A DNA stretch of 60,018 nt, filler included, from 4 parts of 4 records of this genome joined end to end with filler, not necessarily neighbours in it, one strand, 5' to 3'. Shown: positions 16,395 through 40,755, counted from the whole stretch's first letter. Notes: generated from the letters alone by a model not told the origin. Program-made: numbers and translations.

Positions 16395-16476
16395 TACAGG
16401 CGGAGAGACTCGAACTCTCACACCTCGCGGCACTAGATCCTAAGTCTAGCATGTCTACCAATTCCATCACGCCTGC
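16395..16476 (-). tRNA. tRNA-Leu (anticodon UAG)
   Basis: Minus strand GCAGGCG...TGGAATTGGTAGAC...CTAGA-CTTAGGA-TCTAG, long variable arm, GTTCGAGTC, ...CGCCTGT-A. TATATTTG promoter box at 16487-16494. Confidence 0.96.
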
Positions 16477-38494: not shown

Positions 38495-38518
38495 AGTAGA
38501 CGAAAGTCGAAGGAACGC
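38495..38518 (+). ncRNA. Glutamine riboswitch (glnA motif) aptamer, 3' half, cut by the contig start
   Basis: AGUA-GAC-GAAA-GUC-GAA-GGAACGC: loop-E motif, P3 with GNRA loop, and the P1 3' strand. Confidence 0.78.
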
Positions 38519-38526
38519 ATGCAAGT

Positions 38527-38580
38527 TAATCGTTCAATCCTCATAAGGGATCGGAAATAGGGGTGACCTTAAGGAACGCG
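38527..38580 (+). ncRNA. Glutamine riboswitch (glnA motif) aptamer, complete
   Basis: P1 CGUUC/GAACG; P2 AUCCU-CAUAA-GGGAU; CGGAA junction; P3 AGGG-GUGA-CCUU; 3' AAGGAACGCG; lies upstream of amtB. Confidence 0.82.
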
Positions 38581-38615
38581 GATCTTATCTGTATTTTCCA
38601 TAACTACGCATGAAT

Positions 38616-38641
38616 ATTTATCACTGAGGTCAGTGATAAAT
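38616..38641. repeat. Perfect 12-bp inverted repeat in the amtB leader
   Basis: ATTTATCACTGA-GG-TCAGTGATAAAT. Confidence 0.85.
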
Positions 38642-38663
38642 TAATTTTAACGTAAAGGTATGT

Positions 38664-39950
38664 ATGGCCAAAAAAATAATATATTTTATAGGAGTTTTAA
38701 TTAGCTCATTATTGATTAGTTCAGGAGTTTATGCTGCAGTTGATATTGAAGTAGCGTATATTTTCAATACATTTTCATTTCTAGTTTGTGCTTTTCTTGT
38801 CATGTGGATGGCTGCTGGATTTTGTATGCTTGAATCAGGCTTAGTTACAACAAAAAGTGTATCAACTATCGCTGCAAAAAATATTGGTAAATTTGCCATT
38901 GTTAGCGTGATGTTTTACTTAGTTGGTTATAATTTAGGTTACGGTGACTCCGATAACCCATATTTTGGTTCTTTTGAAATATGGACTGATAATTCTAGCT
39001 TAGAAACAGGTTACTCAGATTATTCTGACTGGCTATTTCAAACATTATTTGTATGTGCCACATGTTCTATTGTATCTGGTGCAGTTGCGGAGAGAATTAA
39101 GATTTGGCCCTTCTTTATATTTTCAGCAATACTCGGTGGCTTTATTTATCCTATTCAAATGAGTTGGGAATGGGGAGGTGGATGGCTTGACTCTCTTGGT
39201 TTTGCAGATTTTGCGGGTTCTACTCTTGTGCATGCTTGTGGTGGTGCAGCAGCTCTTGCAGGAATAATGATCTTAGGTCCTCGATTAGGTAGATTTACTG
39301 ACGATGGTAGTCCTCAAAACATGGCACCATTTGCAGCTTCATCAATTCCTTTAGTAACTTTAGGAACTTTTATTTTATGGATGGGTTGGTATGGTTTTAA
39401 TGGTGGATCTCAATTAGCTTTAGGTTCTTTTGAGGATTCAACAGCTATGTCACGTATATTTATGAACACACAATTAGCGGCTTGTGGAGGCTGTATAGCC
39501 GGTGCTATGATAACTAGAATTTTAGGAGGAAAAACTGATATTATTATGATGCTGAACGGAGCATTAGCAGGTTTAGTTTCTATAACAGCAGAACCTCTAA
39601 TGCCTAGCCCTATGCTCTCTATTTTTATAGGAGCAATTGGTGGTATCATAATGTACTTTGGCACAAATTTCCTAGAAAGAATGAGACTAGATGATGTTGT
39701 GGGGGCAATTCCAGTTCATATGTTTGCTGGTATTTTTGGTACATTGGTCGTTCCAATTAGTAATCCGGATACTTCATTTTTAATTCAATTAATTGGTGTT
39801 GGATCTGTTTGCATTTTTGTATTCATAATATCTTATGTGTGCATGTATGTAATTAAATCTACTATTGGTTTAAGAATTAGTAATGAGGCTGAAAAACTTG
39901 GAACTGATAAAGCTGAGATAGGTGTTATGGCTTACTCAATTAGAGATTAA
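38664..39950 (+). CDS. amtB: Ammonium transporter
   Basis: AAGFCMLESG, IVSGAVAER, DFAGSTLVH, GWYGFNGGS and DDVVGAIPVH (twin His intact). Confidence 0.96.
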   Translation: MAKKIIYFIGVLISSLLISSGVYAAVDIEVAYIFNTFSFLVCAFLVMWMAAGFCMLESGLVTTKSVSTIAAKNIGKFAIVSVMFYLVGYNLGYGDSDNPYFGSFEIWTDNSSLETGYSDYSDWLFQTLFVCATCSIVSGAVAERIKIWPFFIFSAILGGFIYPIQMSWEWGGGWLDSLGFADFAGSTLVHACGGAAALAGIMILGPRLGRFTDDGSPQNMAPFAASSIPLVTLGTFILWMGWYGFNGGSQLALGSFEDSTAMSRIFMNTQLAACGGCIAGAMITRILGGKTDIIMMLNGALAGLVSITAEPLMPSPMLSIFIGAIGGIIMYFGTNFLERMRLDDVVGAIPVHMFAGIFGTLVVPISNPDTSFLIQLIGVGSVCIFVFIISYVCMYVIKSTIGLRISNEAEKLGTDKAEIGVMAYSIRD

Positions 39951-39969
39951 TTGTTTTTAATCTATATAA

Positions 39970-39996
39970 ATAGAAAGAGGCTATGCCTCTTTCTAT
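39970..39996. terminator. Hairpin downstream of amtB (probable terminator)
   Basis: ATAGAAAGAGGC-TAT-GCCTCTTTCTAT, perfect 12-bp stem. Confidence 0.6.
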
Positions 39997-40011
39997 AAAC
40001 TGAGGAAAAAT

Positions 40012-40203
40012 ATGAAAACAACATTTATTATTGCAAAAAAAAATATTACTTTAAAATATGAAAGAAAAATGCCTGAAAAAGAAGTTTTAAAAATGAAATC
40101 TTTTGTAACAAGTAAAGGTGATAAATTAGTAAAGACAGAAAAATTTAAAATAAAGAAAATTATTGAAAAAGACAATGAAAGAGTCTTTGAAGTGATTTTA
40201 TAG
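40012..40203 (+). CDS. Small basic hypothetical protein (63 aa)
   Basis: GAGGA ribosome binding site upstream of the ATG; Lys-rich; fills the gap between amtB and yqgE. Confidence 0.75.
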   Translation: MKTTFIIAKKNITLKYERKMPEKEVLKMKSFVTSKGDKLVKTEKFKIKKIIEKDNERVFEVIL

Positions 40204-40755
40204 TTAAGCCCTTCCTGAATATTGAGAGAGTTTATTTGGATCCACACCCAGTAACTTATAAGCATTATTCCATTTATTTGTTACTTCTTCATCAAATAAG
40301 AAAGTTGAGTCTGTAGAAAGAGTCATCCAGCTGTTAGCTAAAATCTCTTTTTCAATTTGACCACCTCCCCACCCAGCATAACCTAAGGCAAGAATACTAT
40401 TTTTAGGACCTTTTCCATTAGATAAATCTTCAAAAAATTCAGAAGTGCTAGTTAGAGCTACACCTTTTTCAATAGATAAAGTTTCTTTTTGAATTACCTC
40501 ATCAGAATGCAAAACAAAACCTCTGCCACTTTCAACTGGCCCACCATAACGAATATATAATTTTTTACCTCCAAGTGGTTTATCAATCCCAAGTTGTTCT
40601 AATAAATCAGGATATAAATCATAATCAATTTTTTTATTAATAATGATCCCCATTGCACCTTCTTTTGAATGAGCGCACATATAAATTACAGTCTTATAAA
40701 ATCTTTCATCTTCAAGAGAAGGCATCGAAATTAATAGTTTTCCAGTTAAATTCAT
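40204..40755 (-). CDS. YqgE/AlgH family protein
   Basis: GAMGIIIN, GGPV..RGFVLHS and LGYAGWGGGQIE motifs. Confidence 0.93.
   Translation of the reverse strand: MNLTGKLLISMPSLEDERFYKTVIYMCAHSKEGAMGIIINKKIDYDLYPDLLEQLGIDKPLGGKKLYIRYGGPVESGRGFVLHSDEVIQKETLSIEKGVALTSTSEFFEDLSNGKGPKNSILALGYAGWGGGQIEKEILANSWMTLSTDSTFLFDEEVTNKWNNAYKLLGVDPNKLSQYSGRA

Follow-up and report, generated by a model that had tools for sequence, protein, structure and literature searches.

Background

Does a glutamine riboswitch precede the ammonium transporter gene of a marine heterotroph, and, if so, which organism carries it and in which direction would it act? The question is raised by a leader at the very edge of a contig, where a preliminary description had seen a complete aptamer of the glnA RNA motif, preceded by the 3' half of another, ahead of amtB. 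The motif, its tandem form and its links to genes for ammonium transporters, glutamine synthetase, PII and GOGAT in marine metagenomes were published in 2010 (Weinberg 2010, PMC2864571), so that neither the class nor the tandem arrangement nor the association with amt is new. Glutamine binding by the motif followed in 2011 (Ames and Breaker 2011, via citing papers) and its function in cyanobacteria in 2018 (Klahn 2018, PMC6212724).

The 2010 paper gives cyanobacteria and unassigned marine metagenomes as the only sources then known for the motif (Weinberg 2010, PMC2864571). The preliminary description had given the same range, in agreement also with the later cyanobacterial study, which states that the effect and the taxonomic affiliation of marine glnA-linked copies were not known in 2018 (Klahn 2018, PMC6212724). 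Members of the corresponding Rfam family, RF01739, have been reported in phages of SAR11 and OM43 (2022, PMC9004378), and the occurrence of the motif in marine heterotrophs is not wholly unreported, because RF01739 has been listed for SAR86 and for a Pelagibacter MAG island (Haro-Moreno 2025, PMC12379486).

Results

Two glutamine aptamers in the leader of amt2

The stretch of DNA that was analysed (the window, 60,018 nucleotides) is a composite of four contigs; between neighbours stands a linker made of twelve bases with 44 N on either side. The leader lies in the first 170 bases of contig 3 (38495-44737, G+C 0.301), between contig 2 (32051-38394, G+C 0.273) and contig 4 (44838-60018, G+C 0.331). 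Contig 1 (1-31950) has a G+C content of 0.397, against 0.27-0.33 in the other three, and may come from another organism of the bin or represent an island; it carries a tRNA gene with a long variable arm (54.8 bits, 16395-16476, minus strand).

Rfam cmscan over the whole window places a complete aptamer of RF01739 (glutamine-I, glnA RNA motif) on the plus strand at 38529-38582, two bases away from the 38527-38580 given in the preliminary description. The match covers model positions 1-53 of 53 and scores 47.4 bits (E 2.7e-07), above the Rfam gathering score of 35 bits, which confirms by covariance model what had been read by eye. The minimum-energy fold of 38529-38582 is exactly the expected three-way junction of P1 (38531-38535 paired with 38574-38578), P2 and P3, the last closed by a GUGA loop, and in the alignment P2 and P3 vary among copies with their pairing kept. 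We refer to this copy as aptamer 2.

Directly at the contig edge (38495), the 3' half of a preceding aptamer is recognizable on the same strand at 38496-38521, comprising the loop-E strand AGUA, a GAAA-looped P3, GAA and the 3' strand of P1. A permissive scan of 38496-38760 (265 bases) returns it as a truncated RF01739 match to model positions 28-53 with 28.6 bits (E 1.9e-4); it stays under the gathering score only because half of the aptamer is missing. The claim that the 3' half of a canonical AGUA/GAA aptamer precedes the complete one is thus borne out, and the aptamer is complete in six metagenome contigs described below. Two further Rfam matches, to ROSE_2 on the minus strand (19.6 bits against a threshold of 65) and to Glutamine-II (11.7 against 33), were rejected as noise.

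Aptamer 2 ends 82 bases upstream of an amt gene and lies on its sense strand, and aptamers likewise stand on the sense strand in the leaders of amt1 and glnA in relatives. The gene, amt2 (38664-39950, plus strand), encodes a marine-subtype ammonium transporter of 428 amino acids (TIGR03644, 541.9 bits, cut-off 514). Its ATG start codon is preceded by a Shine-Dalgarno-like AAAGG, both being read from the sequence within 38654-38666.

The contig edge and the completed leader

A metagenome collection was scanned with a loose pattern built from the unusual aptamer 2, which returned 34 stretches. Thirteen were inspected; seven are unrelated chance matches, several of them G+C-rich, and six carry the same leader. 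In these six contigs a complete aptamer 1 (64.2 bits) stands 7 bases ahead of aptamer 2 (46.9-49.7 bits) and no further aptamer is seen upstream of it in the amt2 leader, so that this leader holds exactly two.

One metagenome contig (L122, 12.8 kb) is 99.2% identical to the window's contig across all 6243 bases and extends 5.2 kb further, bridging the edge. Its genes are, in order, an amidotransferase-like gene, an iolE-like gene, a Gfo/Idh/MocA oxidoreductase gene, a tandem aptamer pair with amt1 (440 amino acids), a 119-codon open reading frame without assigned family, and a second tandem pair with amt2, the window's gene. The suggestion that more copies might lie beyond the contig edge is thus right for the locus and wrong for the amt2 leader itself, the further pair being situated about 2 kb upstream, before the paralogous amt1. 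Amt1 and Amt2 of this contig are 68% identical. Each paralogue has its own riboswitch pair; therefore the duplication included the leader. In most relatives (L003, L017 and 27 other loci) the amt paralogues stand head to tail as well, with riboswitch pairs about 2040 bases apart. The open reading frame between amt1 and the second pair, which has 119-124 codons, is found in at least two relatives, at L122:4735-5094 (plus strand) and L093:1622-1996 (minus strand) and gives no NCBIfam match.

The element lies in the opening 90 bases of its contig, the bin comprises several contigs, and one of these deviates in G+C content (0.397 vs 0.27-0.33), which could suggest that the RF01739 match is due to chance, or that the contig is cyanobacterial, belongs to a phage or is misassembled at its 5' end. 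The E value of the match was, however, obtained over the whole window, the relatives are alphaproteobacterial records (see below), and contigs from four sequencing runs, each of a different study, agree with the window at every base over 38509-38661 or more. With these runs and the contig that bridges the edge, such a reading is refuted, and we attach practically no weight to it. Misassembly of the 5' end, which the preliminary description had named as a possible objection, was not found: the edge is spanned by L122 and the leader recurs in the four runs.

Why the contig ends where it does can be seen from the same data. The aptamers are near-identical repeats of about 55 bases, present at several loci per genome. 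In Logan contigs of the four runs, the summed depth of 38495-38528 exceeds that of 38546-38579 by a factor of 2 to 15 (423 against 48, 155 against 10, 17 against 9 and 152 against 37). Contigs of these runs start at 38495 or 38509; no loose contig end before 38495 was found in them, and they did not extend the leader. Two contigs of relatives (L001 and L020) likewise begin inside this leader. The 5' end is a repeat-induced assembly break and not a misassembly: short repeats such as the aptamers interrupt the assembly of short reads, and for this reason the contig edge removed the 5' half of aptamer 1. A separate rise in depth was noticed at 38852-38902 in the amt coding region, 4 to 27 times the depth of 38546-38579 in all four runs, presumably reflecting a stretch common to many Amt genes of the community.

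Taken as a whole, the element is almost certainly a genuine tandem glutamine riboswitch.

Aptamer 2 lacks loop E

In aptamer 1 the loop-E motif is canonical, AGUA/GAA. Aptamer 2 has AAUA/UAA (38556-38559 and 38570-38572) in its place, with A at 38557 and U at 38570, by which both loop-E guanines are lost, a detail that had escaped the preliminary description; its P3 is predicted as a five-pair helix closed by GUGA. All 124 unique aptamers of relatives keep CGGAAGUA and GAAGGAAC, that is, both guanines, the variant pattern occurs in none of the 116 genomes of the host family, and the other three aptamers of the amt1-amt2 locus have a canonical loop E. In Rfam score, the drop is from 55-64 bits to 47 bits. 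By score and by its junction, aptamer 2 is still a member of RF01739, as a variant.

The substitutions are not a sequencing error, since they are confirmed by the four runs and by the six metagenome contigs. The latter are 87.7 to 99.2% identical to the window and retain both substitutions, and their differences in P2 and at the first pair of P3 preserve pairing, including a change from G-U to A-U at the first P3 pair.

It is loop E that gives the junction its turn, and the contacts to glutamine come from the first P1 pair together with the triple next to it (Huang 2019, PMC6698751). An aptamer deprived of loop E may bind the ligand poorly or not at all. It is thus possible, at clearly less than even odds, that aptamer 2 has decayed or been retuned, in which case either aptamer 1 would sense glutamine alone or the pair would respond at two thresholds. 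The loss of guanines so strictly conserved elsewhere, the lowered score and the role of loop E in shaping the junction all speak for a change in function. On the other hand, the segments CGUUC, CGG and GGAACGC, which by our own mapping onto the numbering of the crystal structure would contain the ligand contacts (Huang 2019, PMC6698751), are unchanged in both aptamers. The pairing-preserving changes in contigs that keep the variant argue for selection and not for decay. Judged from this pattern of substitutions, the variant looks selected and may be retuned.

A conserved box, a hairpin and two alternative helices

The leaders of relatives were compared as a set of 95 unique sequences, 93 of them tandem. 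Their common layout begins with a promoter-like AT-rich stretch, followed by aptamer 1, a conserved linker of 13-20 bases and aptamer 2, and continues with a conserved box, a hairpin, the Shine-Dalgarno sequence and the start codon. In the window the linker lies at 38518-38530 (plus strand); it is conserved in relatives and complementary to the box that follows aptamer 2. The box itself (38592-38613, plus strand, UUUUCCAUAAC...GCAUGA) is of a type present in 94 of the 95 leaders and is a candidate for an anti-RBS or linker-pairing segment. A hairpin of 11 pairs (38616-38641, plus strand) was located by a terminator scan and is followed by a U-rich tail (38642-38651). Each of 94 leaders (94 of 94) has a hairpin at this place, on average of -10.2 kcal/mol, and the stems differ in sequence while their pairing is kept. 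Another hairpin, 38579-38584 with 38588-38593, appeared in the minimum-energy fold of the window and was dropped, as it is not conserved in relatives. In the literature that we searched, as far as the accessible text goes, no description of the box, hairpin and linker around the aptamers was found.

Two mutually overlapping complementarities involve the box. Its 3' part can pair with the linker in two blocks, one of five pairs and one of five or six, separated by a small internal loop. This duplex, computed for leaders of relatives, has a mean of -11.3 kcal/mol in amt leaders and -9.5 kcal/mol in glnA leaders, and at most 5 of 100 shuffled sequences are as good in 78 of 78 and 14 of 15 leaders, respectively. 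The ribosome-binding or start region, in turn, finds its complement in the 5' part of the box: the box reads UUUCCAUA in amt leaders, opposite UAUGGAG, and UUUCAUAA in glnA leaders, opposite UUAUGAAA. Here at most 5 of 100 shuffles are as good in 41 of 79 amt leaders and in 12 of 15 glnA leaders. In the window this second pairing is weak: it has 5 pairs at -4.5 kcal/mol, a value that 35 of 100 shuffles reach as well. When full leaders were folded without constraints, either one pairing or the other appeared, and the two overlap by a few bases. The case for both helices is one of conserved complementarity with changes on one side; within a gene class, the leaders compared showed no double compensatory change.

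Proposed mode of regulation

As the best overall explanation of these features, we propose that the element is a tandem riboswitch of amt2 in which glutamine turns the gene off by way of the box; we would put the probability of this reading at roughly 0.6. Glutamine, the product of ammonium assimilation, would bind the aptamers. The box would serve as a toggle, leaving the start region free when paired with the linker and blocking translation when paired with the start region, and the conserved hairpin would draw the ribosome-binding and start region close to it. Ligand binding would then shift the box onto the start region and block translation, and the hairpin with its U-rich tail may contribute some transcription termination. 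Several points weaken this explanation: the glutamine riboswitches tested in vivo are on switches, the box-start pairing of the window is weak, and aptamer 2 of the window, lacking loop E, may bind glutamine poorly or not at all. It also counts against the toggle that both helices of the box are compatible with folded aptamers.

As to the sign of the response, off is probably correct, and we hold this part with more confidence than the mechanism as a whole. What favours it is the occurrence of one design before glutamine synthetase and both transporters, where activation at high glutamine would amount to positive feedback, and negative regulation of glnA has been called "reasonable" (Klahn 2018, PMC6212724). 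The opposite sign would have glutamine turn amt2 on, as it does gifB, for instance if this paralogue served a nitrogen-replete state or the release of ammonia. Published work lends this sign some support: the only glutamine riboswitches tested in vivo are cyanobacterial on switches (Klahn 2018, PMC6212724; Huang 2019, PMC6698751), earlier data were read as down-regulation upon nitrogen depletion (Weinberg 2010, PMC2864571), and one Amt of SAR11 was speculated to be made in nitrogen-replete cells only and perhaps to export ammonia (Smith 2013, PMC3870248). The linker-box helix, which frees the start region, is compatible with folded aptamers and would suit an on switch as well. Weighed against the shared leader of glnA and both amt genes, we nevertheless consider activation by glutamine unlikely.

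The level of control is harder to call, and translation as the main one is, on the features of the leader, evenly poised. The hairpin at 38616-38641 might instead be an aptamer-dependent intrinsic terminator and transcription termination the main read-out. It is the only terminator-like site in 38495-40400, its 11 pairs are followed by TAATTTTAAC, and several glnA leaders of relatives show a hairpin followed by a run of 5-8 U. Termination is not general, however, because of 94 unique leaders just 6 carry 4 U or more among the 8 bases following the hairpin. The stem has only 3 G-C pairs. Moreover, it varies freely amid conserved flanking segments, which makes a conserved antiterminator that pairs with the stem hard to draw. 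Termination as the principal mechanism is, in our judgement, improbable, and control of translation through the box stays the preferred account.

The riboswitch belongs to an alphaproteobacterial family

Relatives of the Amt protein numbered 539 in a collection of species-representative genomes, of which 80 loci were kept. The best relative, 95% identical, comes from a MAG titled Proteobacteria bacterium (G001), followed by single-cell genomes titled uncultured Alphaproteobacteria (77-82%); relatives from records titled Pelagibacter, Pelagibacteraceae or Pelagibacterales are 66-82% identical. Searched with a simple motif over the 500 bases ahead of amt, 41 of the 80 loci have two aptamers, a single locus has one, where Rfam finds a second at 45 bits, and 38 have none. 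Every one of the 42 positive loci bears an Alphaproteobacteria title. None of the 35 Pelagibacter-type-titled loci with an upstream region has aptamers by the motif search, and the other 3 of the 38 negatives have no upstream DNA. When 20 of the loci were searched with Rfam, 6 with an Alphaproteobacteria title had pairs and 13 with a Pelagibacter title had none, and two whole Pelagibacter-type genomes gave 0 hits to RF01739. A survey of amtB leaders in SAR11, advised in the preliminary description, therefore ended negatively.

The window's host family, which includes G001 and a second genome, G002, comprises 116 small, AT-rich alphaproteobacterial genomes. RF01739 is present in 99 of the 101 family genomes searched, with 1 to 8 hits each and mostly in even numbers. 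In G001, G002 and a third genome, G005, there are pairs ahead of amt, of another amt that follows it immediately, and of glnA, where the pair stands between glnB and glnA. Some family genomes have 8 hits, that is, four pairs against three identified targets (amt1, amt2 and glnA). One locus of the family (L095, G102:C3:47389-49446, minus strand) carries a single aptamer with the best score of the family scan, 68 bits; its leader differs downstream and lacks the conserved box, and the gene, by its first residues, is neither amt nor glnA.

On the window's own contig, neighbouring genes encode a Tim44/TimA-type protein, which is typical of alphaproteobacteria, and a YqgE/AlgH-family protein. Together with the nearest records, titled Proteobacteria or uncultured Alphaproteobacteria, and with the distribution of RF01739 in the family, they uphold the earlier assignment of the contig to a non-cyanobacterial organism. 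The assignment to a streamlined marine alphaproteobacterium holds, the family being alphaproteobacterial with small AT-rich genomes. The host is not SAR11 proper, the Pelagibacter-titled loci with an upstream region being devoid of aptamers. Another gene of the contig (40825-42876, plus strand) encodes a protein of 683 amino acids that matches DsbD over residues 276-657 only, its first 275 residues being without NCBIfam match. The stretch is present in 18 public runs from 9 studies, mostly labelled as marine or seawater metagenomes.

For the order to which the family belongs, the sampling ratio gives roughly 225 species. Assemblies reach 1.6 Mb in the window's family and 1.4 Mb in its sister lineage, sizes that fit the two families described within the HIMB59/AEGEAN-169 order (Molina-Pardines 2023, PMC10734472). 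Among SAR11-type strains, GlnD, two PII genes and a glnK-amtB arrangement were reported for HIMB59 alone (Smith 2013, PMC3870248). From the number of species, the assembly sizes and the occurrence of GlnD, two PII genes and glnK-amtB in the sister lineage, we infer that the host order is HIMB59/AEGEAN-169 and that the window's family is not the one of strain HIMB59. Isocitrate lyase is absent from G001, G002 and G005; it says little on the placement, because one of two Pelagibacter-type genomes is also without it.

Riboswitch and GlnD relay exclude each other within one order

The distribution of nitrogen sensors was compared across the order; the counts for GlnD, PII and RF01739 refer to genomes of relatives and not to the window's own organism. 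GlnD (TIGR01693) is found in 0 of 116 genomes of the window's family and in 60 of about 71 genomes from the rest of the order (G119 and above). Although the genomes are for the most part incomplete assemblies from single cells or metagenomes, a difference of this size is not a sampling effect. RF01739 shows the reverse distribution: among 151 genomes sampled from the order, all 78 positives are members of the family and none lies outside it. A lineage with the protein relay and without the riboswitch thus stands beside a lineage with the riboswitch and without the relay, in the genomes searched.

PII (PF00543) was retained by 87 of the 116 family genomes, in one copy each and often beside the glnA riboswitch pair. 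In the rest of the order, two PII genes occur in 5 of 5 genomes examined, one of them 127-128 bases upstream of amt, as in glnK-amtB. The host family seems to use the riboswitch in place of the usual protein glutamine sensor, and its RNA sensors would take the part played by GlnD and GlnK in the sister lineage.

Discussion

Relation to known glutamine sensors

In most respects the element resembles the RF01739 copies of marine metagenomes: it scores above the threshold of the covariance model, folds into a three-way junction, is arranged in tandem and is linked to genes for ammonium transporters and glutamine synthetase. It differs from the copies described earlier, as far as the consulted reports go, in its alphaproteobacterial host family, in an aptamer 2 without loop E and in the surrounding box, hairpin and linker. 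The details that seem fresh are the host family, the exclusion of riboswitch and GlnD/GlnK within one order, and the loop-E-less aptamer. In the literature searched, no publication was found that ties RF01739 to HIMB59/AEGEAN-169 or to the loss of GlnD.

A relative tested in vivo is the leader of gifB (IF17) in Synechocystis sp. PCC 6803, which has an aptamer of the same class and acts in the circuit of glutamine synthetase. It has one aptamer only and works as an on switch, its gene encoding an inhibitor of glutamine synthetase (Klahn 2018, PMC6212724), whereas the leaders described here carry two aptamers directly before amt and glnA and are, from their design, expected to be off switches. 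The hosts have in common that PII is present and GlnD absent, in cyanobacteria (Klahn 2018, PMC6212724) as in the window's family. The relay of GlnD and GlnK-AmtB in proteobacteria, reported for strain HIMB59 (Smith 2013, PMC3870248), has the same task, in that it ties both the uptake of ammonium and glutamine synthetase to the pool of glutamine. The relay consists of proteins and acts on transporter activity; the window's family has RNA sensors that act on gene expression.

Serial arrangement of aptamers is not restricted to this class. In the tandem glycine riboswitch, two like aptamers in series feed one expression platform (cf. PMC5066625). The likeness to the present leader lies in the arrangement, while ligand and fold are different.

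Combining these observations, it can be proposed that in one family of HIMB59/AEGEAN-169 type the riboswitches of amt1, amt2 and glnA have replaced GlnD-GlnK, so that glutamine is read out entirely by RNA, in convergence with cyanobacteria and, at amt2, maybe with two thresholds. This proposal is tentative, and we give it a little short of even odds.

Conclusions

With the locus and its relatives, the marine copies of the glutamine riboswitch acquire a host, a family of streamlined marine heterotrophs that is both abundant and uncultured, and a regulon of at least two ammonium transporters and glutamine synthetase. Aptamer 2, lacking loop E, is a natural mutant in which the share of loop E in glutamine binding can be asked. 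The split between riboswitch and GlnD/glnK-amtB within one order presents a natural experiment, in which a minimal genome would have swapped a protein relay for an RNA sensor, and the clear prediction that follows from it lends itself to a test in vitro, with no need to grow the organism. If the proposed replacement is true, the combination of a canonical aptamer with a selected, loop-E-less one may give two glutamine thresholds on one mRNA, and PII without GlnD, together with a glutamine riboswitch, would have arisen independently in cyanobacteria and in this family.
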